DNA of 64,000 nt, taken from an uncultured bacterium (GTDB taxonomy: Bacteria; Babelota; Babeliae; Babelales; Vermiphilaceae). The notes below the pieces were generated by a model, which had not been told where the DNA came from, searched no databases, and worked only from the letters and a program-made list of their open reading frames with translations. Both the position numbers and the translations under genes were made by a program. The DNA lies in assembly GCA_963695335.1 (NCBI GenBank), contig OY968764.1, positions 224,001-288,000 of the forward strand, read 5' to 3'. Within the stretch, counting starts at the first letter, position 1; every line of letters begins with the position of its first letter. Below, piece by piece: positions 3,358 through 61,271 of this stretch.

Positions 3358-5328
3358 TTATCCAACTAATACCAGCAGCAATGAAACAATAGACATCAAC
3401 TTAATTAAAATATTAAGCGCTGGTCCAGATGTATCCTTGAAAGGGTCGCCCACCGTGTCACCAATAACAGCTGACATGTGTGCAACAGATCCTTTGCCAC
3501 CCATGTGACCCGCTTCAATATATTTCTTAGCATTATCCCATGCACCACCAGCATTTGCCATCAACAGTGCAAGTAAAACACCTACAACGGTTGAACCAAC
3601 AAGTACACCACCAAGAACATGAATACCAAGTGTATATTTAACAACAACTGGAACAGAAATTGTTAACACACCAGGCAACACCATTTCTTTTAATGATGCT
3701 TTGGTACTGATCGCAACACAACGTTCATAATCAGGTTGTGCTGTACCCGCCATAATGCCAGGAATTTCTTTAAACTGACGACGAACTTCCATCACCATTT
3801 TCATTGCAGCATCACCAACAGAACGCATAGTAAGGGCTGAAACAACAAATGGAACTGTTCCTCCAATAAAAATACCGATCAAAATATATGGATCTAAAAC
3901 ATTAAGCATTTCAATATTTGCTTGTTGCGCATATGCAGAAAGTATTGCAAGCGCAGTAAGCAATGCTGAACCAATTGCAAAACCTTTACCAATTGCCGCA
4001 GTGGTGTTACCTAATGCATCAAGTTTATCAGTAATTTTTCTGACTTCTGGTCCAAAACCTGCCATTTCAGCAATACCACCAGCATTATCTGCAATAGGAC
4101 CATATGCATCAACAGTCATAGTAATACCCACCGTTGCAAGCATAGAAACTGCTGCAATAGAAATACCGTATAATCCACCGTAATAATGCGCTGCTAAAAC
4201 AATAAGTCCTAAAATAATAACCGGAGCAGCCGTTGATTCCATACCAACAGAAAGACCATAGATAATATTAGTTGCTGCACCAGAACGTGAAGTTTCAGCA
4301 ATGTTAATGACTGGTTTGCCACTTGTATAATATTCAGCAACTGCACCAATCACAACACCAGACAAACAACCAAGTGCAATGGGGATAAATAGTTCCATTG
4401 CAACACCATGGACCGTTTGATACCAATATGTTCCACCAAGAAATGCTACAATCGCCACATAGGTTGCATTACGTAACATAGCTGCAGGACTGCTCTGTAA
4501 AACTAAATTGAAAAGTAATCCTACAACAGAACTGATTAAACCAATTCCTGCAAGTACTAATGGGAACAACACATATTGAGGTGTCATTTGTGAACCAATT
4601 GCCAAAATTGCTGTTGAAACAATTGCTCCAACATATGATTCATAAATATCAGCGCCCATACCTGCTGTATCACCAACACAATCACCAACGTTGTCAGCAA
4701 TTACCGCTGGGTTACGAGGATCATCTTCTGGAATACCTGATTCCACTTTACCCACCAGATCAGCTCCAACATCTGCTGATTTTGTGAAAATACCCCCACC
4801 AACACGTGCAAAGAATGCAACTAAACTTGCACCAAGGCTAAAACATGTTAATAAGGTAACAAATTCAGGATGATCGCCAAATAAATAAAAAATTTTGACA
4901 AGCGCAAGTAAACCAAAACTTGCAACAGCAAAACCCATTACACCACCACCATAAAATGCAACCATAAACGCAGCAGATTCACCACCTTCACGTGCTGCAC
5001 TTGTTGTGCGTACATTTGCAGATGTCGCTGCAATCATTCCAACAAAACCAATTAACATAGAGATAAATGCGCCAGAAACAAATATAAGAGCCGCTAACCA
5101 ACTCTTAAATATTACTCCTAAAATAATTGCAACAACAGCAACCACCATTGCAATTACTCTATATTCTTCACGTAAAAACGTCATTGCACCTGCATGAATT
5201 GCAGCTGCAATCTGCTCGGCTTTGTGATTATTAACCGATAATCGGTTAATCGAACAAAATAAAATTGCTACGACCAGCAGGCCGAGCAATGCTATCATGC
5301 CCAAAACTATTAAATGCATCAAAATCAT
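3358..5328 (-). CDS. hppA: Membrane-integral pyrophosphatase, K+-dependent, probably Na+-translocating
   Basis: [54 protein letters not shown] motifs. Confidence 0.96.
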
Positions 5329-5486: not shown

Positions 5487-6353
5487 TTATAATTTGGAGG
5501 GTTTCACTCTTTTCAAATAAGCATCCCAGCCGGCTTTTTTATAACGTTGTGCTTCTACAAGCGGATCTTTGGCTTGCAAAATACCTCTGCCAACAATAAT
5601 AATATCACTACCAAGTTCATTGATAACTTTATCTGGAGTTAAATATTGTTGCCCAAATGCATCACCACCTTCAGCCATTTGCACACCAGGAGTAAAATGA
5701 AGCAATCCAGGATTATCAGATAATTTTTCGCGACAAATAACACCAATAACATTATTTGAATGTTGCAACGCTAATTTGACTGTGTGTGTTGTATAATCAC
5801 CTTGCGCAAGCGTGTTGGCGCTACTCATTTGTGCAAGTAAAAGAAATGCTGCATCTTTTGTTTTTTCTGTTGATTTAAGTGCTTGCAATGTACCATCACC
5901 TGCTATGCTGTGTACGGTAACCATATCAGCCCAGTCTGCAATGCGGAATATTCCACCGGTGTATTGTTTTAAAGCAATCGTTCCGATATCAGCAAATTTA
6001 CGATCTTCCCAAATTAAAAAATTATGTTTCTTCGCAAGAGCACACAATTGTGCCGGAAAATCTTTATCATAATCATCAATTGCATCACAATGTACTTTTA
6101 AAACAGATATTTCTGGCCCAACCAAATCTGCCAACTCAAAAAGCTTATTCTTTTGTGTAACATCTGCGGAAAAGATAAGATTAGTTTTTTTTGCATCCAT
6201 AATAGTGAGCAAACGTTGTGCAATCGGATTAGTGCAATAAGTTGCACGTTGCTTATATGTTAATACTTTATCTTGGAAATCCATTGCGATTAGACGAGAA
6301 CAATTACTCAAACAAACGATAAGTGTTATTAAAACAAAACATTTTTTAAACAT
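5487..6353 (-). CDS. pyrF: Orotidine-5'-phosphate decarboxylase, URA3/UMPS-like, with signal-peptide-like N-terminus
   Basis: EDRKFADIG catalytic motif; TYKQRA..NPIAQRLL.IM..KKTNL..SADV; GQQYLTP; IIVGRG. Confidence 0.93.
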   Translation of the reverse strand: MFKKCFVLITLIVCLSNCSRLIAMDFQDKVLTYKQRATYCTNPIAQRLLTIMDAKKTNLIFSADVTQKNKLFELADLVGPEISVLKVHCDAIDDYDKDFPAQLCALAKKHNFLIWEDRKFADIGTIALKQYTGGIFRIADWADMVTVHSIAGDGTLQALKSTEKTKDAAFLLLAQMSSANTLAQGDYTTHTVKLALQHSNNVIGVICREKLSDNPGLLHFTPGVQMAEGGDAFGQQYLTPDKVINELGSDIIIVGRGILQAKDPLVEAQRYKKAGWDAYLKRVKPSKL

Positions 6354-6375
6354 GTATATAGTTTTTTCTTTTTAA

Positions 6376-8001
6376 TTATAATTTACTACGTGATTGTAAT
6401 TGAAATGTTTTATATAAGCTCAATAACTCTTGCAACATAAACAGCGCATGGAAATTATATCCTGCTTTCGTAATATTTTCTCTCCCACCTTGCTGGCGAT
6501 CAATAAGTCCAATAATATCTTTAACTTGCAAACCAGCAGATTCTACTATTTTAACCGTTTCTAAAACACTTGAACCTGTCGTTATAACATCTTCAATAAT
6601 CAAACATTTTTGCCCTGATGTATACACACCTTCAATCATCTTTTTTGTTCCATGATCCTTTGCTTGTTGACGCGCCATCACCATTGGTATACCTGAAAGC
6701 ATAGAAAGCATAGTAGTTATTGGAACTGCTGCATACGGCACAGGACACAATACATCTGCACCATATTGTCGTTGAATACCGTTAAAGCACAGAGCCAAAT
6801 CGCGTAAAATATCTGGATGTGATATTGCAAGGCGCATATCAACATAATTATTTGAACGAATACCACTTTTCAAAACAAAATCACCAAACTTAATAACACC
6901 AATATCAAACAATTTATGAGCTAACTTTTCTTTACGTGTATGTTTTATCAATGCTTGTTCATGATATTGTGCTGCAAGACATGGGTTACTCATCATACCG
7001 GTTGCAGCAAGTGCAACCGCTGCACCTGCCTTCAAAAATTGTGAAAAATGAGATGGCATAGTAATTCCTCCTACTCCTAAAAGGACAAGATTAAGATTTT
7101 CTTTGTGTATGATTGTAGAAGCTCTGTTTATAAAATCAAGCGCCAATTGCCGAATAGGCGCCCCTGAAACTCCAGCCATAATGCGTGTGCCAAATGTTGG
7201 GCAACCATCACTGTTAATAACTTTCATCGGAACAGAATTAATACCAACAACACCTCTGACACCGGCTTTTGCAGCTGCAATTAACGCAGACTTCATTACT
7301 GAAACATCTGTAAAAACACCACATTTTATAATTACTGGAACATCAGATGTAACCGTTTGTACCACATTGTGCGCTATAACAAAAATATCATCAGGTCGTG
7401 TATATATTGGTTCGTTATGGGTATTTAAATTGGGACATGAAAAATTTGCTTCAATAATATCTGCTCCACTATCCTTTGTTAATTGCGCTGTTTTTATCCA
7501 TTCCTCAACACTGTTACCAAATATAGAAACAATCAGAACCTGACCTTCTAATAAAGATTGTTTAGCTTTTGTAATATCGTTACGTGTATATTCACTATCC
7601 ATAGATGGATTGCCAAAAGAATTTGCAAGAGAAATCTCTGCAATGTTTTCGGGTTTCTTGTTGTATGCCATCACTGTTTTACCAATATCATCATATGTTA
7701 ATGGTGAAGATCTTTGAACATATCGTATATTCGGTGCCGGATGTGCATCATGTTCATAACAACGAACGGTTTTATACGTTAAAACATCATAACCTGATCG
7801 CGCTGCTAACCAAATTCCTTTACTATCAGTGGTTGCACGTGCAGATATTCCAATAGGTGAAGCAATTTTATACCCAAGAAAATCATGCCAATCTTCTTTG
7901 GGTGCGCGATGAATTATTGGCAATTTGATTTCAGCAGTGTGAACTAATGGAATAATGGTCATGCACAACAATAATACACATCTGAATATCAATAATCTCA
8001 T
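6376..8001 (-). CDS. pyrD-pyrE: Class 1 dihydroorotate dehydrogenase fused to orotate phosphoribosyltransferase, with signal-peptide-like N-terminus
   Basis: TYKTV, NSFG, EANFSCPN, GVSG, GVGGI (DHOD); FGDFVLKSG..S..YVDMR, KDHGTKK, IIEDVITTGSS (OPRT); GGGAG RBS before ATG 8001. Confidence 0.9.
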   Translation of the reverse strand: MRLLIFRCVLLLCMTIIPLVHTAEIKLPIIHRAPKEDWHDFLGYKIASPIGISARATTDSKGIWLAARSGYDVLTYKTVRCYEHDAHPAPNIRYVQRSSPLTYDDIGKTVMAYNKKPENIAEISLANSFGNPSMDSEYTRNDITKAKQSLLEGQVLIVSIFGNSVEEWIKTAQLTKDSGADIIEANFSCPNLNTHNEPIYTRPDDIFVIAHNVVQTVTSDVPVIIKCGVFTDVSVMKSALIAAAKAGVRGVVGINSVPMKVINSDGCPTFGTRIMAGVSGAPIRQLALDFINRASTIIHKENLNLVLLGVGGITMPSHFSQFLKAGAAVALAATGMMSNPCLAAQYHEQALIKHTRKEKLAHKLFDIGVIKFGDFVLKSGIRSNNYVDMRLAISHPDILRDLALCFNGIQRQYGADVLCPVPYAAVPITTMLSMLSGIPMVMARQQAKDHGTKKMIEGVYTSGQKCLIIEDVITTGSSVLETVKIVESAGLQVKDIIGLIDRQQGGRENITKAGYNFHALFMLQELLSLYKTFQLQSRSKL

Positions 8002-8104
8002 AACTACTCCCTTTTTTAAAAAATAATATGTTGAAGCTTGAAAAGACGCCCAAGACATATTAGATTTGTTGAGAAATTTATACAACCATAAAAAAGGAAG
8101 CTGT

Positions 8105-8983
8105 ATGCAAGATACATTGATGTACGATTATATCGCCAAAAGAATGCGAACGTTTTTTCTCGAACAAAAAAATTTTGTTGAAGTGCCTGCACAGTCACGA
8201 CTCTCTATTTTAGCCGCATGCGAAGATCCCAAAACTATTACTCAATTTGTTTTCAGCGGCGTCAATTATCCACTCCCCCAAACAGGCCAAATGTGGCTTG
8301 AAGTTGAACTACTTAAAAATCCAACGCTCCCGGGAGTGTTCTGTGCAACAACAAGTTATCGCAATGAACCGTTCCCTATTCCAGGTCGTCACGATAAAAT
8401 TTTTCCGATGATAGAATTTGAATCACATGGCACCATTGATGAGATGAGAAAATTGGAAGCAGAACTTCTTGAATTTCTTGGTTTTGAAGCGCCAGTATGT
8501 GTGCAATACAATGATATTTGTAAACAATACGAAACTGATAATATTAGTGCAGAATACGAAACACAAATGGCACGCGATATTAGCCCAGTGATTAGTCTTG
8601 AAAATTTCCCAATACGTACACATCCATTTTGGAATATGAAGCATAACGCAGAAGGCATTTTTAATAAAATTGATGTGATTTTATACGGCATGGAAACAAT
8701 AGGATCAGCAGAACGCTCAACAAATGTTGAAGAAATGCGTGATTACTTCTTTAATATTTCCAACGGCCAGTATGCACAGCTATTGTTCAGCTCTTTTGGT
8801 AAAGACCGCGTGATCAAAGAACTTGATGAATATTTATCATTGCCTATGATTCCACGCTTTGGAGGTGGCATTGGAGTTACGCGTATGGCACGTGCTATGG
8901 CACTGGCTGGTATTGGTCCTAAAGTTGCAAACACAGATTTTATCAAGCCACAACCGAACCGCATACACGAACAACAATTATAA
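8105..8983 (+). CDS. Class IIb aaRS catalytic-domain-only paralog (AsnRS2 / asparagine synthetase A-like)
   Basis: Motif 2 SYRNEP...RH..IFPMIEFE and motif 3 PRFGGGIGVTR; about 290 aa, no anticodon-binding domain. Confidence 0.75.
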   Translation: MQDTLMYDYIAKRMRTFFLEQKNFVEVPAQSRLSILAACEDPKTITQFVFSGVNYPLPQTGQMWLEVELLKNPTLPGVFCATTSYRNEPFPIPGRHDKIFPMIEFESHGTIDEMRKLEAELLEFLGFEAPVCVQYNDICKQYETDNISAEYETQMARDISPVISLENFPIRTHPFWNMKHNAEGIFNKIDVILYGMETIGSAERSTNVEEMRDYFFNISNGQYAQLLFSSFGKDRVIKELDEYLSLPMIPRFGGGIGVTRMARAMALAGIGPKVANTDFIKPQPNRIHEQQL

Positions 8984-17989: not shown

Positions 17990-20439
17990 ATGGGGATTGC
18001 AATGATCTCACGAATTCTCGCGAAAATAGTCGGCACCAATAATGAACGTCAATTAAAAAAAATGCTCCCCATTATTGAAAAAATTAATGCTCTTGAACCT
18101 TCAATGCTCGCATTAACCAATGAAGAGCTTGCTCATAAAACCATTGAATTTAAAGAACAAATCTCTGCCGGCAAACATTTAGATACTATTCTGCCGGAAA
18201 CTTTTGCCGTTGTGCGTGAAGCAGCTCGCCGTACACTTGGTCAACGCCACTTTGATGTGCAGTTAATGGGTGGTATTGTTTTACATCAAGGAAAAATCTC
18301 AGAAATGAAAACAGGTGAAGGTAAAACGCTCACCGCAACACTCCCTCTCTATCTTAATGCCTTAGCTGGCAAAGGCGCCCATCTTATCACCGTCAATGAT
18401 TATCTTGCACGCCGTGACTCTGAATGGATGAGTCCTGTGTACAGCTTTTTGGGTTTAAGAGTTGCATGTCTTCAAAACGCAATGAATGATACAGAGCGTA
18501 AAGATGCCTACCAAGCAGATATTTTATACGCAACTAATAATGAACTTGGATTTGACTATCTACGCGACAACATGAAATTCCGTGAAAGTGATCTATGTAC
18601 AACGCGAACTTTCTTTTGGTATTGTTGATGAAGTGGATTCAATTTTAATTGATGAAGCTCGTACTCCACTCATTATTTCTGGCAGTTCAGAAGAAGTTTC
18701 ATCATTATACCGCGATGCCGACAGGGTTGTTTCTTATCTTGAAAAAAATGTTGATTATGAAGTTGATGAAAAAGCCCGCAACGTTATCTTAACTGAATCT
18801 GGTATTGATAAAGTTGAAGCGGCTTTTAATATCAAAAATCTCTTTCTTGTTGAGTACATGCAACTATTACATCACATCAACCAAGCATTACGCGCGCATT
18901 CCCTTTTTAAACGAGATGTTGAATATGTTGTTGCTGATAACCAAGTGCTTATTGTGGATGAATTTACCGGACGTATTTTACCAGGACGGCGCTATAGCGA
19001 TGGGTTGCACCAAGCAATTGAAGCTAAAGAAAATGTAGAAATTGAACGAGAAAGCCAAACATTAGCAAGTATCACATTACAAAACTTTTTCAGACTTTAT
19101 AAAAAACTCGCTGGTATGACTGGTACTGCTGCAACTGAAAGTGAAGAATTCCATAACATTTATAAACTTGATGTTATTTCTATTCCAACAAATCGCCCTA
19201 TGACTCAGAAAAGATATGCCTGATCTTATCTTTTTGACAAAAAATGCAAAATACAAAGCTATTATAGAAGATATCACTGAGCGTCATAAAAAAAATCAAC
19301 CAGTTCTGATTGGTACCATTGCAATTGAAACATCAGAACTATTAAGTGCAATTTTAACAGCAAGTGGTATTCGCCATGAAGTGTTAAACGCAAAACAACA
19401 TGCACGTGAAGCGGAAATTATTGCGCATGCAGGAGAACCTGGGCGTATCACCATTGCAACTAATATGGCTGGCCGTGGTACAGATATCAAACTTACTCCA
19501 GAATCTATTCAAGCAGGAGGTTTATATATTCTTGGAACTGAACGTCATGAAAGCAGACGTATTGATAATCAGCTGCGTGGACGTTCTGGACGTCAAGGCG
19601 ATCCAGGTGAATCACGATTTTACATATCTCTTGAAGATGATCTTGCACGTATTTTTGGTGGAGATTCATTAAAAAACAAAATGGTGTTTGTGGGAATGCA
19701 AGAAGATGAAGTGATTGAATCCGGCTTGGTTTCTCGTACCATTGAACGCGCTCAAGAACGTGTAGAAAAACATAACTTTGACAACCGTAAACATCTACTT
19801 GAATATGATGATGTGCTTAATCAGCAACGCATCGTAATCTATAATCATCGTCTTGATGCACTTGCTGGTGAAAACCGCATTTATGAACTGATTCGTGATT
19901 TTATTATCACGATTGTACAAGATCTTGTAACGTATAATGCGCCACAAAACACACTCAAACAAGAACAAGTTGCTAAAATTTACGAAGCATTGGTATATAT
20001 TACTGGCCTTAAACAAACAGATTTTTCTGCTGCAGGCATTAGCACTTCTAACAGTGAGCTGTTCCAAAAGGATCTTATTAATTTTATTCTTGAACAATAC
20101 GACCTGTATCGCAGAAAGTTCAATGAAAACATTATTAAAAATGCGGAAAAGTGGCTTGTTTTAGAAACAATTGATCAAGCGTGGCGCCAGCATATGCTTA
20201 ATCTTGATCATCTTAAAGAAGGCATTGGATTGCGTGGATGGGGACAAAAAAATCCACTTATTGAATATAAACGTGAAGCATTTGATATGTTCCGTGAAAT
20301 GATGTCACATATCCGTTTTGATATTGTGCATCACATATTCCATCTGAACCTCACACAATTTAATGAACAAGAACTTGAGCAACGCCGTGATGCTGAGCTT
20401 GAGCATCTCAATCTCTCCGGCACTGGCGATCCAGCATAA
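17990..20439 (+). CDS. secA: Preprotein translocase SecA, split into three ORFs by two +1 frameshifts (probable sequence error)
   Basis: [50 protein letters not shown] colinear across three frames; extra C at about 18593 and about 19204-19206. Confidence 0.93.
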
Positions 20440-26170: not shown

Positions 26171-27483
26171 CAGGGCGATCGCATTTAAAACTCTGATTTT
26201 AACGGAAATTTCGAAATTCACTTGATACACTATTTGTATTGGAGGCTGGAGGATAAAGACGGAACAAAATAAAAAAAGTATGATGCTCAAAAAAAACGTC
26301 CCACTTGAAAAAGGAGATTTTTAATGAGCATCATACTGCATGAAATATGGCATAACTACGACCATTTGGCAAATCTTATAGCATGCTTAGAAGAAGTCAC
26401 TGATCCAAGAATTGATCGATGTAAAAAACATGAACTTGTCGTAATACTTTTGATTGCAATTTTAGCTATATTTTCCGGTGCACAAAACTGGGTACATGTG
26501 GTGAGATTTGCACATGATCATGAAGAATGGTTACATGATAAAATATGGCTTCCAAATGGTATTCCATCACATGATACCTTCCATCGTGTCTTTTTACTTT
26601 TAAATCCAAAAGAATTAAAAGATTGGTTAGTGCTTTGGCTCGAAGTTGCACTGCATGATAATAGCGACCATATCGCAATTGATGGCAAAGTCATAGAAGC
26701 TTGGTCTTCAAACAATCCGTTTACGTTAATAAATGCATTCAGTCCTTCATCAAAAATAGTTCTTGAGCAAGCACGTGTTCCAGATGGCAATAATGAATTA
26801 ACCGGTATGAATCGCGTATTAGATACGCTAAATTTAAAGGGAAAAGTAATCACTATTGATGCGATGGGTACAAGAAAAGCATTTGTAAAAAAAATTATCG
26901 CACGAGGCGGTGATTATATCTTGCCAGTTAAACTGAATAATCGTTTACTTTACGAAGATATTGACCTTTTTTTACGTACACTCGCACAAGGTGAACATGA
27001 AGAAATTGCATATAAATATCATGAAACTATCGATTATAAGCATGGTAGAAAAGAAATCCGAAGGTGCTATTCAACCGAATATATTGATTGGATCTATCAA
27101 AAGAAAGAATGGACCAATCTAAAATCAATAACTCTTATAGAATCAAAGGTTGAAGGTAAAAGAAGAAATGCAAATAATATACGTCTTTTTATCAGCAGCC
27201 TACCAGCAGATCCCGAACGTATCTTGGGTTATATTCGTGCCCATTGGAGCATCGAAAACCATCTTCACAGAAGTCTTGATGTCAATTTTAACGATGATCA
27301 AAGAAGCTTAAGAAAAGGCCATGGGGCTCAAAATTTTAATTTTCTCAGTGCCTTCGTTAATTCACTTTTAACCAGAAAAACCTCAGATTTCAGCTTGGGA
27401 AATAAATTACGAAGAGGAAATAGTGACCCTAATTTTATTTTGGATACCCTTATAAATCCAGGGTTTTAAATGCGATCGCCCTG
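26171..27483 (+). mobile_element. ISAs1-family insertion sequence, 1313 bp
   Basis: Perfect 21-bp terminal IRs CAGGGCGATCGCATTTAAAAC; 9-bp direct repeat TTTTTCATA on both sides. Confidence 0.95.
26324..27469 (+). CDS. ISAs1 DDE transposase
   Basis: DPR..CKKH.L, GIPSHDTF.RVF, IAIDGK, TIDAMG, HGRKEIR, RAHWSIENHLH..LDV. Confidence 0.95.
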   Translation: MSIILHEIWHNYDHLANLIACLEEVTDPRIDRCKKHELVVILLIAILAIFSGAQNWVHVVRFAHDHEEWLHDKIWLPNGIPSHDTFHRVFLLLNPKELKDWLVLWLEVALHDNSDHIAIDGKVIEAWSSNNPFTLINAFSPSSKIVLEQARVPDGNNELTGMNRVLDTLNLKGKVITIDAMGTRKAFVKKIIARGGDYILPVKLNNRLLYEDIDLFLRTLAQGEHEEIAYKYHETIDYKHGRKEIRRCYSTEYIDWIYQKKEWTNLKSITLIESKVEGKRRNANNIRLFISSLPADPERILGYIRAHWSIENHLHRSLDVNFNDDQRSLRKGHGAQNFNFLSAFVNSLLTRKTSDFSLGNKLRRGNSDPNFILDTLINPGF

Positions 27484-49186: not shown

Positions 49187-50668
49187 TTAATCTTTTTTAG
49201 ACAAAAACCTATTCGATGGCACGCCTCTATGAACATGTATCGGCACCAACGTACGCACATATTCATTACGGTTTTTGCACAAATATGATTGCCCAATAGC
49301 ATCACATGCAAAACCAAGATATTTCAGCACTTCTGGATTTACAACATTACGTGCATCAACAATAATTGGGTAATGCATCACTTTTTTTAAACGTGCAAAA
49401 TCAATCTGTCTAATTTCATCCCAATCAGTCATAATAATAACCGCATCTACATCCATTGCTGCTTTGTAAGGAGAAGATGCGTACTCAATATCAGGAAATA
49501 TCATACGCATATTGTCTGTTGCAACGGGATCATACGCCACAACGTTTGCACCGAGCTCTTGTAACAGTTCAATTGTTCTAATAGAAGGAGAATAACGAAC
49601 ATCGTCCGTGCCTGCTTTAAATGCTAATCCAAGTACAGCAACTGTTTTGCCTTCTAGATCTTCTTGTAATTCTCTTGCCATAAGATTTTCTAATTTTTCA
49701 ACAGCTTTACCTTGTTGCTTTTCATTAACATCAAGAGCTGCTTTAACCGTATAAAATGGTAAATGGTGTTTTCCTGCAATATGCACTATTGCTTGAGAAT
49801 CTTTTGGAAAACAAGAGCCACCAAAACCAGGCCCTGGATTTAAGAATGCGGGACTTATACGGTGATCAAGCCCCATAGCATATGCAACTGTTTTAACATC
49901 AGCATCTGTTGCATCACATAAATTAGCAATTTCATTAATATAACTAATTTTTACTGATAAAAAGGCATTGGATGCATATTTAGTCATTTCCGCAGTTTGC
50001 ACATTAGTTAAAACATACGGAACACCACTTGCAATGAGTGATTCATACACTTCACACAAGGCAATAAGTGCTATATCAGAATCAGTTCCAATCACTAAGC
50101 GATCTGGATACAAAAAATCTCTTACTGCAAGGCCTTCACGCAAAAATTCAGGATTAGACACAACGCTAAACATCTGTGGATCTATACCATATGTATTTTC
50201 TAATTGAGCTCGTATACCTTTGCCAGTTCCAACCGGAACGGTGCTTTTGGTAACAATAATTTTGTAAGAATTCATATTTTCTGCAATCATTCTTACAACA
50301 CCATCTACATATGATAAATTTGCGCTCCCATCTGCTCCCATAGGAGTTCCAACAGCAATAAAAATAATGTCACCAAGTGCTATAGCTTCAGCAACATTAT
50401 CAGTAAACATCAATCGCCCTGCATCAACATTGCGTTCAACCACTTCACTTAAGCCCGCCTCATAAATTGGCATAATTCCATTGTTTAACATCTCTATTTT
50501 CCGCGAATCAATATCAGCACAGATCACTGAATTGCCAATTTCTGCAAGACAAGCACCAGAAACAAGACCTACATATCCTGTACCAATAATGGTAACAATT
50601 CTATCACTCTGAGCTTGCAAAAACATTGATACACACAAAATTTGCGCCATAACAATTTTACGCAACAT
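49187..50668 (-). CDS. ugd: UDP-glucose 6-dehydrogenase with signal-peptide-like N-terminal extension
   Basis: IIGTGYVGL, AVGTP, KSTVPVGT, NPEFLREG, GFGGSCFPKD; AAGGAG RBS before MLRKIVMAQILCVSMFLQA. Confidence 0.93.
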   Translation of the reverse strand: MLRKIVMAQILCVSMFLQAQSDRIVTIIGTGYVGLVSGACLAEIGNSVICADIDSRKIEMLNNGIMPIYEAGLSEVVERNVDAGRLMFTDNVAEAIALGDIIFIAVGTPMGADGSANLSYVDGVVRMIAENMNSYKIIVTKSTVPVGTGKGIRAQLENTYGIDPQMFSVVSNPEFLREGLAVRDFLYPDRLVIGTDSDIALIALCEVYESLIASGVPYVLTNVQTAEMTKYASNAFLSVKISYINEIANLCDATDADVKTVAYAMGLDHRISPAFLNPGPGFGGSCFPKDSQAIVHIAGKHHLPFYTVKAALDVNEKQQGKAVEKLENLMARELQEDLEGKTVAVLGLAFKAGTDDVRYSPSIRTIELLQELGANVVAYDPVATDNMRMIFPDIEYASSPYKAAMDVDAVIIMTDWDEIRQIDFARLKKVMHYPIIVDARNVVNPEVLKYLGFACDAIGQSYLCKNRNEYVRTLVPIHVHRGVPSNRFLSKKD

Positions 50669-50832
50669 AACAATCTCCTTTTTTAAATAAACTTTCATAC
50701 AAAACATAGAATATTTTTTCCATCGTTGTATAGATTTGTTTCATAAGATCAGCAACTATTGGGTTTTTTGATAAAATTTGCTACGGTGTTGTGTAATCGT
50801 CAGCAATGTCGTTTTTAAAAAAGGAAATGATA

Positions 50833-52356
50833 ATGAATTATATTAAAATAATAACAGTATTGCTCTTGTGTCTTAGTCACAATATCTTCTCATCAACCTC
50901 TCCAGAAAGAAAATCAACTGAACTCCCATTTGTTATTGTCGTCTGTTCTTATAATAATGATCAATGGTCAGAAACCACACTTACATCACTTTTCACTCAA
51001 AATTATACAAATTTTCGTGTTATCATTGTTGATGACTGTTCATCAGATAATAATTGTGAAGTAATCGAACAATGCATCGATAAACATAATTTTAGTGATC
51101 GAGTTACTTTTATCAAAAATGAACAACGTCATCGGAAGTTGTTTAATTTGTATCGCGTACTTTATGAATGTAACGATAATGAAATTGTTTTAATGGTGGA
51201 TGGCGATGATTGGCTCATCGATGAAAATGTACTTTCATTTTTCAACAACATTTATGCTGATGACGGTATATGGTTTACCTATGGACAATATCGCAATGTC
51301 CCAGCTTCTCAAGCTATCCAATGGGGACACAAAGAGATGGGATATTGTCGACCTGTTCCCAAACATGTTCAACGTCAACAAGCCTACCGTTACTACAGCT
51401 TTATTTATATGCATCCACGTACCTTCCGTGCATGGTTATTCAAACTCGTGAAACTAGAAGATCTTATCGCAGATAAAATTGAAGGTTTTGAGGGGAATTT
51501 TTATCCTGCAAGCAATGATGTTGCTATGTATTTTCCCATGGTAGAAATGGCCCATACGCATATTAAATTTATCCCCGATATTCTGTATATCAGAAATCTT
51601 TACTCAGAAATTGTTGGTTTTAAAGTTGATCGTCGTCTGCAAACAACTTCTGCCCGTGAAATCAGGAAAAAAAAATGTTACCAAGTACTCTTCCAGGCTA
51701 AAAAAAACAGACTCAATTCCGTACAAAAAGCTCTCACTGACACCTTTTTACTGTGTCGTTATAATTTAACAGATATTCAAACCACGCTCACAAATCTCCA
51801 GAATAATACTACCAATCTTGGATCAATCTATGTTTTCTTCCATAACACAGAAGATAATAAAAAAATATGCCGCTTTATTAAAAAAGATTTCCCTGACGTA
51901 ATTTTTGTTCCTTATGACACAAATGGTAATAAAGCGTTAAAAAATCGACTTTTAGACTATATAAGCTTATGCAAAAATGATCATATTCTTGTGCTGACCG
52001 ACTCATGTTCTATTTTAAAACCATTAGATCTTTCTTATTACATCTTTTGGCTTGAAAAAACATATGCGTATCGTTTTTACCTGGGCAGATCTTCACTTGA
52101 TAAGGCAGCTCCATTCTACATCACTCTCAATGATGATATATGCGCATGGAAAAACCCTCCCGGCACAGACACCTGGAAGGGTTTATCAATAGGCGATGAT
52201 GCATTTATTTGTCGCAAAACAACGCTTTATAAAGAAATTAAGGATTTAAATTTCAACAATACATACGGACTTTTAAAAGGAATGATGCTTTCATCATCAC
52301 AATCAGCACGTGTTGGTTTATTTTTAAAGAATGAAACAATTAAGATTGGTGCTTAG
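50833..52356 (+). CDS. GT2 glycosyltransferase with signal peptide and a second degenerate GT-like domain
   Basis: FVIVVCSYN, IIVDDCSSD, VDGDDW. Confidence 0.85.
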   Translation: MNYIKIITVLLLCLSHNIFSSTSPERKSTELPFVIVVCSYNNDQWSETTLTSLFTQNYTNFRVIIVDDCSSDNNCEVIEQCIDKHNFSDRVTFIKNEQRHRKLFNLYRVLYECNDNEIVLMVDGDDWLIDENVLSFFNNIYADDGIWFTYGQYRNVPASQAIQWGHKEMGYCRPVPKHVQRQQAYRYYSFIYMHPRTFRAWLFKLVKLEDLIADKIEGFEGNFYPASNDVAMYFPMVEMAHTHIKFIPDILYIRNLYSEIVGFKVDRRLQTTSAREIRKKKCYQVLFQAKKNRLNSVQKALTDTFLLCRYNLTDIQTTLTNLQNNTTNLGSIYVFFHNTEDNKKICRFIKKDFPDVIFVPYDTNGNKALKNRLLDYISLCKNDHILVLTDSCSILKPLDLSYYIFWLEKTYAYRFYLGRSSLDKAAPFYITLNDDICAWKNPPGTDTWKGLSIGDDAFICRKTTLYKEIKDLNFNNTYGLLKGMMLSSSQSARVGLFLKNETIKIGA

Positions 52357-53095
52357 ACGAATTTTTTCTTTTACGCACCACTTTACGCACATATACAAGC
52401 TGAGCTATTTTATTCTTTATGCCTTTTGTCCAATTAGCATGATGCATCATAATGCCATGCGGCACTGGTAAGCGCATTCCTGGAGACCACTCATGACCTG
52501 TTAGAGTACCTCCTCCAAAAAATGTATTTGGTAAATAGCCCCACACTACGTTATAGGGATTTGTTTTGCTATGTCTTTTTATGCAACGATTTAATGAATT
52601 TTGATCACTATTTAATTTATCTTTTTGCATTGTTAATTTTACATCTTGCCACAATTGCAACGTTTTTTCATTCGCTCGGCATGCAAAAAAACCTGAACAA
52701 AGTACTCCATTTGGTGAATTTTTTTGAATCATCAAATCTTTATTTTTCATCAATTTTAAAATTGTCGCTTTAATTGGAGAAAAAAATTGAATATCAACAT
52801 CTGAAAAAATAAAAATTGAACCCCAGTTTTCCTGAATTGCACGAATAATCAAATCTACTTTGCGTATGGTTGTATCTGTCCAACCTTCATCCATAAATTT
52901 TGCCGATAGACATGTTTGTTCAGAAAATTCAAAAATAATATCAAAATCATCTTTAATAGAAGGTAAAAAGAATTGATCTTTTAACTGCTCATGAGATGGA
53001 GTATACAAAGCATATAGTTTCATTTTTTCTTGAGCTACTATATGCAAAAAACAAAAAACAAAAATAAAATTACATATCATTAAACATTTTTTCAT
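52340..53095 (-). CDS. Nucleotide-diphospho-sugar transferase (GT77-like) with signal peptide
   Basis: FIFSDVDI, CSGFF, DQNSLN, HHANW..G..NK. Confidence 0.75.
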   Translation of the reverse strand: MKKCLMICNFIFVFCFLHIVAQEKMKLYALYTPSHEQLKDQFFLPSIKDDFDIIFEFSEQTCLSAKFMDEGWTDTTIRKVDLIIRAIQENWGSIFIFSDVDIQFFSPIKATILKLMKNKDLMIQKNSPNGVLCSGFFACRANEKTLQLWQDVKLTMQKDKLNSDQNSLNRCIKRHSKTNPYNVVWGYLPNTFFGGGTLTGHEWSPGMRLPVPHGIMMHHANWTKGIKNKIAQLVYVRKVVRKRKNSSKHQS

Positions 53096-60407: not shown

Positions 60408-61271
60408 ATGAAACATCCTTTTTTGACCATAGCCTTTGTTGTATCTTCATGCATTGTTGCTTTATTCGCTTTTAGATGCACACAAGAGCTGTTTCAAAAG
60501 AAAAAAGAGAGTAAATCTATAAACAAAGATGTGAACAATATGAAACTCAGTATTGTTATTCCCGCATATAATGAAGCAAATCGGATAGAAAGAACCCTAC
60601 GAACATATCATGAATATTTTGCAGCAAAACATATGCCTTTTGAATTGGTTGTAGTATTAAATGGTTGCAAAGATAATACTATTGGTGTTGTTGAACGCGT
60701 ACGCAAAGATCTTGCAACTAATACCATAGTGATCATTGATCTACCACAAGCAGGAAAAGGCCTTGCTATTAAAGCAGGTTTTGCTGATGCGCTTACCAGA
60801 AATAATGATTTAATTGGCTTTGTTGATGCTGATATGGCAACAAAACCTGAAGCATATGATGATCTTATTGCTAATATTGGTGACAATGACGGTATTATTG
60901 CAAGCCGTTACATGCCTGGCGCACAAATTTCTCCACCACGCCCTGCATACAAACGTTATGGAAGTAGATTAGTATACGACCCGTTAAAATGGCTACTTTT
61001 TGGTTTATCATATTACGATACCCAGTGCGGTGCAAAGCTGTTCAAACGAGCAACTTTAGAGACCGTTAATCCACAATTAACAGTCGCTCAATGGGCTTTT
61101 GATGCTGAATTGTTATATCTATGCAAAAAAGCTGGTTACACTGTCATAGAAATTCCAACAGTCTGGGAAGATCAAGCTGAAAGTAAACTCACCCTTAAAG
61201 GTGGCATACGCATGATTAGTTCTCTATTCCAAGCGCGATGGCAACATTTTTGGTCAAAGAAAAAAGCATAA
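60408..61271 (+). CDS. GT2 polyprenol-phosphate glycosyltransferase (DPG-synthase-like)
   Basis: LSIVIPAYNE, GKG.A, FVDAD, DTQCGAK, WAFDAELL; N-terminal TM. Confidence 0.88.
   Translation: MKHPFLTIAFVVSSCIVALFAFRCTQELFQKKKESKSINKDVNNMKLSIVIPAYNEANRIERTLRTYHEYFAAKHMPFELVVVLNGCKDNTIGVVERVRKDLATNTIVIIDLPQAGKGLAIKAGFADALTRNNDLIGFVDADMATKPEAYDDLIANIGDNDGIIASRYMPGAQISPPRPAYKRYGSRLVYDPLKWLLFGLSYYDTQCGAKLFKRATLETVNPQLTVAQWAFDAELLYLCKKAGYTVIEIPTVWEDQAESKLTLKGGIRMISSLFQARWQHFWSKKKA

Follow-up and report, generated by a model that had tools for sequence, protein, structure and literature searches.

The stretch of DNA analysed here (the window; 64,000 nucleotides of contig OY968764.1, from an uncultured Babelota bacterium of the family Vermiphilaceae) holds two adjacent minus-strand genes whose products cover the last three steps of uridine monophosphate (UMP) synthesis, as a first-pass annotation made from the letters had proposed. 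The upstream gene, a pyrD-pyrE fusion located by gene calls and profile matches (6376-8001; 541 aa), starts with an ATG at 8001, five bases upstream of which stands a Shine-Dalgarno-like GGGAG (8007..8011). Its product comprises a predicted Sec-type signal-like peptide (residues 1-22; 7936..8001; predicted cut after T22), a class-1-like dihydroorotate dehydrogenase (DHODH) domain (about residues 36-348; 6958..7896) and an orotate phosphoribosyltransferase (OPRT) domain (about residues 356-530; 6412..6936) with an intact phosphoribosyl pyrophosphate (PRPP) loop. A gap of 22 bases (6354..6375), in a layout repeated in an independent contig (L138), separates it from pyrF (5487-6353; 288 aa), which encodes an orotidine monophosphate decarboxylase (OMPDC) of UMPS/URA3 type with its own predicted Sec-type signal-like peptide (residues 1-23; 6285..6353; cut at A|MD) and a catalytic domain at residues 31-282 (5508..6263) whose DxKxxD motif is intact. 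The residues that the first-pass annotation quoted for the two signal-like N-termini proved exact.

Two of the three activities are assigned above curated cut-offs: the OPRT part scores 136.4 bits against TIGR00336 (cut-off 106.8) and PyrF 172.6 bits against TIGR01740 (cut-off 92.3). PyrF has its DxKxxD at residues 117-122, and the OPRT has its PRPP-binding loop at residue 468 and the catalytic loop R-x-x-x-K-x-H at 444, although the first loop Lys of most OPRT homologues is Gln in this protein and in the homologues P0006 and P0022; the catalytic roles of the named OPRT, DHODH and OMPDC motif residues are those we take to be general. Differences to relatives by codon position (first/second/third) amount to 8/4/28 for the DHODH and 11/12/43 for the OPRT in alignments with L138 and G004, and to 18/8/68 for the OMPDC against L138; as they fall mostly at third positions, both genes are maintained under purifying selection. 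The split between pyrE and pyrF is no assembly artefact, since L138 and four homologues of 288 aa have the same split. AAGG and AGGA are the commonest upstream words other than poly-A genome-wide and the 16S tail carries a matching anti-Shine-Dalgarno sequence; the pyrF ATG lacks a clear Shine-Dalgarno match in this genome (score 0, like 22% of genes), and three close relatives have AAGG or AAGGA ahead of theirs. The fusion, which had been called unusual, is real but not unique, as the 120 homologues listed include 12 other PyrD-PyrE double fusions and 13 PyrD-PyrE-PyrF triple fusions. Likewise, PyrF is of the eukaryote-like type but this is not distinctive, the type being shared by many bacteria (Chlamydiae, Patescibacteria, Gammaproteobacteria) at about the identity seen with animal UMPS. 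A quick OMPDC tree, which gives neither the order of fusion and fission nor the name of a donor, points to no direct eukaryotic source; the subfamily is widespread in bacteria.

The flavin domain (PF01180 on residues 124-341, 60.3 bits versus a cut-off of 27) belongs to a divergent family. In its predicted model (pLDDT 92), leader residues 1-16 are unstructured as judged by confidence, residues 20-35 form coil and the barrel begins near residue 36. Model and alignment together give the flavin mononucleotide (FMN) TIM-barrel fold with catalytic Cys and conserved Asn and Lys residues that characterises class 1 enzymes, and K77, N127, N186, C189, N191, K226 and N255 are invariant or nearly so among homologues. 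Fold comparison, run alongside Foldseek, gave Z scores of 33.4 for dihydropyrimidine dehydrogenase (DPD), 32.1 for class 1B, 32.0 for class 2 and 31.2 for class 1A. Class 1A enzymes (Lactococcus PyrDA, yeast Ura1) and class 1B PyrD share the TIM barrel, the catalytic Cys motif and the Asn/Lys set, but at just 17-18% identity, and the protein forms a separate family that reaches no NCBIfam DHODH equivalog cut-off (best PRK07259, 77.8 versus 269 bits). By profile search the genome lacks the PyrK domain PF10418 that a class 1B enzyme would call for, which likens the protein to PyrK-independent DHODHs; the catalytic position holds Cys, not the Ser of class 2, and the model is without the N-terminal quinone-binding helices of that class. 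As for DPD/PreA, the fusion protein has no Fe-S domain and scores 70.1 versus 335 bits against the PreA model, PreT not having been searched for separately. Cys catalysis and the lack of PyrK suggest from the sequence that the electron acceptor is soluble. The family's role is pyrD, as indicated by operon position: at five loci (L060, L063, L067, L069 and L071) the homologue is flanked by pyrC and pyrE, and pyrB or carAB is found no more than 5 kb away. Members occur in environmental Chlamydiae, in Rickettsiella and other Gammaproteobacteria, in Patescibacteria and in free-living phyla, and an untagged one in a protosteloid amoeba transcriptome (P0075). Elsewhere in the family, six Geodermatophilaceae loci (L108, L117, L122, L128, L132 and L134) have the DHODH-like domain at the end of long open frames that measure 600-1650 codons between stops and may be fusions with further domains, and P0077, P0083-P0097 and P0100 form a clade of their own, made up of lone DHODH-like proteins most of which are tagged.

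Signal peptides were called with a rule of our own that asks for a basic n-region, a hydrophobic h-region and small residues at -3 and -1. The rule is specific, as shown by a Pfam scan over the first 420 residues of 450 flagged non-ankyrin proteins (452 were selected and the two studied here left out): most had no family, and the set was free of elongation factors, polymerases and tRNA ligases and held just one ribosomal protein (L5, from an internal start), with MurG, a carbonic anhydrase, a LOG protein and an acyltransferase as doubtful members. In a chance control, in which out-of-frame upstream DNA was read onto 629 untagged soluble genes, an ATG-led extension passed in 3 of 1258 trials (0.24%). 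Both proteins of the pair have Sec/signal peptidase I features under this rule, PyrD-PyrE with Thr allowed at -1, and signal peptidase I is encoded in the genome as found by Pfam; neither protein has a twin-arginine motif, and no TatC was found in the genome, which leaves the Tat route without a basis. The h-window of the PyrD-PyrE leader (3.08) falls at the 85th percentile of tagged proteins and that of the PyrF leader (3.34) at the 95th. The PyrD-PyrE cut site, V-H-T, failed a first, stricter rule by its Thr at -1; homologues have A or T at the cut residue and some read Q-A|M-E at the same place. The A|MD of PyrF is the commonest cut motif of tagged proteins here (159 of 469, versus 25 of 619 untagged soluble proteins).

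Conservation of the extension among relatives, a check that the first-pass annotation had suggested, bore it out: 11 of the 15 close stand-alone OMPDCs are tagged versus none of 87 more distant ones, and of the four close ones called untagged three have database starts at the domain boundary or within it and one has a longer leader. The leader sequence itself changes fast, 13 of 22 residues differing from each of two relatives, while start, length, open frame and hydrophobicity are kept; a neutrally drifting copy would keep an open hydrophobic leader with probabilities of 0.07 and 0.02.

The absence of carAB, pyrB and pyrC, first noted for the window, extends to the genome for pyrB, carB and pyrC, the three searched. 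The genome, a single contig of 1.37 Mb with 35.7% GC and an estimated completeness of 94%, has close homologues that carry the name Candidatus Babeliales, consistent with its two nucleotide transporter (NTT) genes, two secretins and 41 ankyrin proteins; a GspC-like protein is also present. Profile searches, each of which gave matches in 6-14 of 14 control genomes, found no carB or amidohydrolase pyrC in the whole genome and no pyrB either in this genome or in any of the 61 genomes of the order, so that the full pathway is not encoded. PRPP synthase and the UMP kinase PyrH gave no match in this genome or in any of the 11 genomes of the genus (they were found in 26 and 31 of the 61 genomes of the order, respectively), nor did uridine kinase, flavokinase or PyrK in this genome. 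Taken together, these absences imply that the bacterial cytoplasm has no home-made dihydroorotate, PRPP or FMN, nor a dedicated kinase for UMP. Genes like those for CTP synthase and NDK are present. Hand-written motifs for RNR, ThyA, TK, Adk, Gmk, UPRT and fumarase gave no match either, but the same approach missed signal peptidase I and these blanks were not used. Two further matches were set aside: a second PF00215 match in most relatives (E about 1e-20; at 1132163-1132789 in the present genome, G000), whose sequence we take to be hexulose-phosphate-synthase-like, was not counted as an extra pyrF, and a second PF00156 match is a ComF-like protein rather than a PRPP synthase. One report states that seven TM6 genomes are without all nucleoside biosynthesis genes and possess parts of type II secretion (PMC4776705), and Dependentiae are described in two reports as lacking nucleoside biosynthesis and importing nucleosides (PMC4776705; PMC6561590).

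The module is patchy, the DHODH occurring in 14 and this OPRT in 11 of the 61 genomes of the order, all in the family of the window, and its layout varies: triple fusions, PyrD-PyrE with PyrF, PyrE-PyrF with PyrD, three separate genes and PyrD alone were all seen. The tag follows the layout. Where the polypeptide starts at the OPRT, the OPRT can be tagged (G022, G012, G019 and L144), and tags likewise stand on OMPDC (G012, G032) and on DHODH (G004, G009, G022, G023, G032 and G036). In all 11 triple fusions parsed (4 of 15 were not), the linker between OPRT and OMPDC is hydrophilic and bears no tag, whereas the split genes have one. In the quick tree, a well-supported OMPDC clade of 34 rows mixes fused forms with split, tagged ones, which implies that the layout switched more than once, and the resemblance between leaders of distant OMPDCs may point to recombination or a common origin. 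The DHODH of G032, itself tagged, groups in a FastTree tree with untagged Patescibacteria and Acidobacteria rows, which suggests a separate gain of the tag. In G033 (L016/L225; C2 470400-473050) the module is in three pieces, the OMPDC piece lacking a start Met and preceded by linker-like sequence, and looks like a broken triple fusion. Three genomes (L017 in G009, L023 in G023 and L026 in G036) have a tagged DHODH-like gene alone, no matching OPRT having been found in the genome; such a gene would make orotate only or act on another substrate.

In the groups that share this DHODH family, the likely source among them, the picture is different. Two of 42 GTDB loci with this DHODH are tagged (G022 itself and one other bacterium), and the copies of Chlamydiae and Gammaproteobacteria are untagged. 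PyrB was found in 16 and PRPP synthase in 18 of 20 genomes with the family, the five loci examined have pyrB with pyrC or carAB beside the DHODH gene, and the chlamydial loci L059, L060, L062 and L069-L075 show the gene order pyrD-pyrE-pyrF. A Rhabdochlamydia helvetica operon is described as having eukaryote-like pyrE and pyrF and an amoeba-like pyrD (PMC6490308).

On these grounds we consider it probable that both gene products work outside the bacterial cytoplasm, as a Sec-exported module that takes host metabolites from dihydroorotate to UMP. The export that had been postulated is thus well supported by the conserved extension, the tag that follows the layout, the missing cytoplasmic substrates and downstream enzymes and the contrast with Chlamydiae; this support does not include the host-cytosol part of that proposal, and the probability divides about evenly between the host cytosol and the periplasm, cell surface or vacuole lumen. 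Under this model, a Babeliales parasite would have taken the tail of a chlamydia-type pyr operon (pyrD-pyrE-pyrF) without its head (carAB, pyrB and pyrC) and placed a Sec signal peptide on each polypeptide; SecA/SecYEG would move the proteins out unfolded and signal peptidase I would cut the tag. Outside the cytoplasm, the DHODH would take up host FMN and oxidise host dihydroorotate, passing the electrons to fumarate, oxygen or another soluble acceptor, the OPRT would join orotate to host PRPP, and the OMPDC would make UMP irreversibly. Host kinases are the simplest candidates for phosphorylating the UMP, which would then come back as UTP through an NTT, with part of the UTP feeding a tagged GalU-like enzyme, UDP-glucose dehydrogenase and glycosyltransferases. 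For a host-cytosol arm, type II secretion or vesicles could serve, the former in keeping with the secretins and the GspC-like protein.

More tentatively, Sec and type II delivery could bring the module into the host cytosol and open a respiration-independent pyrimidine route from which UTP is harvested while the parasite remodels or exhausts the mitochondrion. The idea of a mitochondria-independent route is, by analogy, chemically sound: a fumarate-using DHODH in the cytosol suffices for mammalian cells to make UMP independently of respiration (PMC12945687). The Dependentiae described in the literature live as intracellular parasites of protists, and Chromulinavorax destructans grows wrapped by a host mitochondrion (PMC6561590). 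It is conceivable, at a similarly modest level of confidence, that in relatives the module is delivered as a single three-enzyme polypeptide and in some together with PRPP synthase: the three top-scoring PRPP synthases of relatives (L150, L151 and L152; G036, G019 and G056) are tagged, and two weaker ones inspected are not.

Several observations weigh against export or against its destination in the host. Because 535 of 1291 genes (41%) and 29 of 41 ankyrin proteins pass the signal rule, near the published phylum rate, a tag alone is unremarkable here; for Chromulinavorax destructans, signal peptides are predicted on 44% of proteins (PMC6561590). The signal codons differ from L138 at 19 of 66 bases, as fast as core third positions, and a codon-position test on the PyrF leader found no bias and hence lends no support by itself. 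By the rule, DHODH is tagged in 6 of 13 related genomes and in 18 of 33 close DHODH rows; database starts are often internal, and some DNA-checked relatives have a leader of 13-15 residues without a basic residue. Genome G010 has a triple fusion from which the tag is cleanly missing and is also without PRPP synthase and PyrH, a combination left unexplained by the model; both enzymes are present in G017, G025 and G027, whose modules are untagged, a pattern that suits a cytoplasmic version of the module; and G012, G019 and G022 are tagged yet have PRPP synthase, the best copy of G019 being itself tagged. Tag and substrate loss are therefore not tightly coupled, in a comparison of tag with PRPP-synthase loss that is small, covering 11 genomes with G010 as an exception. 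The gene absences were drawn from the 94%-complete assembly, and cytidylate kinase (Cmk) is present and might take UMP, as a weak substitute for PyrH. The sole secA of the genome, also in the window (17990-20439, plus strand), is divided over three reading frames, the breaks falling near 18582-18628 and 19216-19223, which bears on any claim of Sec export; the frameshifts are probably indel errors of the assembly, and among short contigs from four low-share DNA runs no piece shown bridges the leaders or the secA breaks. As to destination, periplasm or vacuole lumen fits nearly as well as host cytosol, and the untagged family member in the amoeba transcriptome implies that some hosts may already have a cytosolic DHODH.

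An unlikely alternative, though the strongest of those considered, is that the enzymes stay in the cytoplasm and salvage imported dihydroorotate or orotate with imported PRPP and FMN, Cmk phosphorylating the UMP, and that the leaders are untranslated, leftover or leaky. It would account for the untagged modules in G010, G017, G025 and G027, the presence of Cmk and the frameshifted secA, and it draws on residue 24 of PyrF, an obvious alternative start, which is a Met right where distant homologues begin, together with the missing Shine-Dalgarno match at the upstream ATG. However, M24 has no Shine-Dalgarno match either, and the OMPDCs of P0130, G012 and G032 contain no Met in the stretch from leader to domain, so the hydrophobic segments do not simply lie upstream of the true starts, as had been considered when the genes were first annotated. 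The leaders have also stayed open and hydrophobic where neutral survival and chance are as low as given above, PyrD-PyrE has its Shine-Dalgarno sequence at the tagged start, and PRPP synthase is absent throughout the genus.

Export for a purpose other than mainly UMP is less probable still: the flavin domain could be an oxidase or have a different dihydropyrimidine as its substrate, or the module could drain host PRPP or supply UDP-sugars for a glycan coat instead of serving nucleic acids. The domain is as near to DPD as to class 1B and 1A enzymes by Z score and lies below every NCBIfam DHODH cut-off, class-1A-like fungal proteins turned out to be dihydrouracil oxidases (PMC9585004), G009, G023 and G036 keep a tagged DHODH-like gene without OPRT, and tagged UDP-sugar enzymes occur in the genome. 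Yet chlamydial and gammaproteobacterial operons have no pyrD-like gene other than this family's between pyrC and pyrE, the DHODH is fused to OPRT and OMPDC and has no Fe-S domains, and the feeding of UDP-sugar synthesis is compatible with an exported UMP module. That the leaders are uncleaved anchors, holding the enzymes on either face of the inner membrane as a metabolon beside the nucleotide transporters, is just as improbable, for although the V-H-T site departs from the textbook A-x-A and some relatives have short leaders that lack a basic residue, the hydrophobic stretches span just 10-14 residues and close with small ones, the A|M-D of PyrF is typical of tagged proteins, and homologues of PyrD-PyrE read Q-A|M-E at the cut.

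The exported module would not stand by itself among tagged enzymes that depend on cofactors. Tags in this genome are also carried by UDP-glucose dehydrogenase, a GalU-like nucleotidyltransferase, glycosyltransferases, acetyl- and methyltransferases, myo-inositol oxygenase, an ATP-dependent ligase, a PP2C and a second thymidylate kinase, which shares 52% identity with its untagged counterpart, and a normal periplasm is without ATP, UTP, NAD+, acetyl-CoA and S-adenosylmethionine, the cofactors of these enzymes. The two thymidylate kinases lie at 543580-544443 and 630799-631437, both on the minus strand of G000:C1, one with a leader and a longer C-terminus and one without; tagged copies recur in G001 and G005. 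In the window, leader-tagged genes encode UDP-glucose dehydrogenase (49187-50707, minus strand), two GT2 glycosyltransferases (50806-52356, plus; 52340-53095, minus) and a nucleotide-diphospho-sugar transferase (60408-61271, plus), which may form an exported UDP-sugar pathway using the product of the module. Elsewhere on G000:C1, leaders stand on the GalU-like nucleotidyltransferase (1126799-1127743), the myo-inositol oxygenase (about 1131200-1132020) and a HIT-family protein (1146832-1147920), all on the plus strand, on a long collagen-repeat protein family at about 2200-44000 and in L202, and on many WD40 proteins. Should the export model be true, it is possible, if far from established, that the module is part of a general strategy of the phylum in which much of its nucleotide and nucleotide-sugar metabolism is run in the host by tagging borrowed enzymes.

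Around the gene pair, an H+-pyrophosphatase gene (3358-5328) lies directly downstream of pyrF on the same strand; the OPRT reaction releases pyrophosphate. Divergent from pyrD-pyrE, at 8066-8983 on the plus strand, is a gene with a class II tRNA-synthetase catalytic domain (PF00152) alone, possibly an asparagine synthetase of the tRNA-ligase-like kind, whose start is kept beside pyrD in G010, G033, L140 and L143. A conserved stretch upstream of pyrD, considered as a regulatory RNA, is mostly the start of this neighbour read backwards, and Rfam gave just one sub-threshold chance match, located elsewhere; that reading was rejected. A DDE transposase (PF01609 with PF13808) is encoded at 26324-27469 (plus strand).

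If the tags work, current pathway reconstructions place Dependentiae enzymes in the wrong compartment, and an apparently broken pathway becomes complete once joined to the first three steps of the host. Secreted metabolic enzymes would then extend from single steps to a multi-step nucleotide pathway that uses PRPP and FMN outside the bacterial cytoplasm, and the unexplained type II secretion genes would gain a testable role, and a connection would open to the way the mitochondrion is remodelled when Chromulinavorax infects its host. Both the three-enzyme fusion and the divergent, PyrK-independent DHODHs are uncharacterised and open to direct assay. Our literature search on Dependentiae, whose scope was open-access main texts, returned no description of signal-tagged PyrD, PyrE or PyrF or of the triple fusion.

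Among known systems, environmental Chlamydiae (Rhabdochlamydia helvetica, Waddlia and Criblamydia) have complete pyr operons with the same kinds of gene, including the eukaryote-like pyrE and pyrF and the amoeba-like pyrD, but these operons include carAB, pyrB and pyrC and have neither leaders nor PyrD fusions, whereas here just the tail is present, fused and tagged (PMC6490308). From residue 31 onward the OMPDC matches UMP synthase structures at E about 1e-76 and the yeast URA3 enzyme at 1e-62; the eukaryotic UMP synthase, however, fuses OPRT to OMPDC, while the fusion partner of the OPRT here is DHODH, relatives also having all three in one chain, and a eukaryote-type PyrF, true as the designation is, is already known from bacteria. 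In Chlamydia trachomatis, GlgA and GlgX relocate a bacterial pathway to the inclusion lumen and cytosol, where it uses host substrates, as we propose here; they do so by type III signals and for a storage polymer, in contrast to the predicted cleavable Sec-type peptides and nucleotide synthesis of the present case (PMC6717882). Sec-dependent or type II-secreted chlamydial proteins that reach lumen and cytosol include CPAF, CT311 and CT795 (PMC6717882). A likeness in kind is also seen in the hexokinases HK2 and HK3 of the microsporidian Trachipleistophora hominis, in which a reduced intracellular parasite has likewise put a signal peptide on a normally cytosolic metabolic enzyme, proposedly to raise the metabolite supply near the parasite (PMC6460350). 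These enzymes sit in a surface coat and not freely in the cytosol, which calls for caution in the present case too (PMC6460350). The microsporidian system is moreover eukaryotic, uses the endoplasmic reticulum route and concerns a single glycolytic step, whereas the module described here would be exported by a bacterium along the Sec route and would carry out three consecutive steps with a flavin cofactor.

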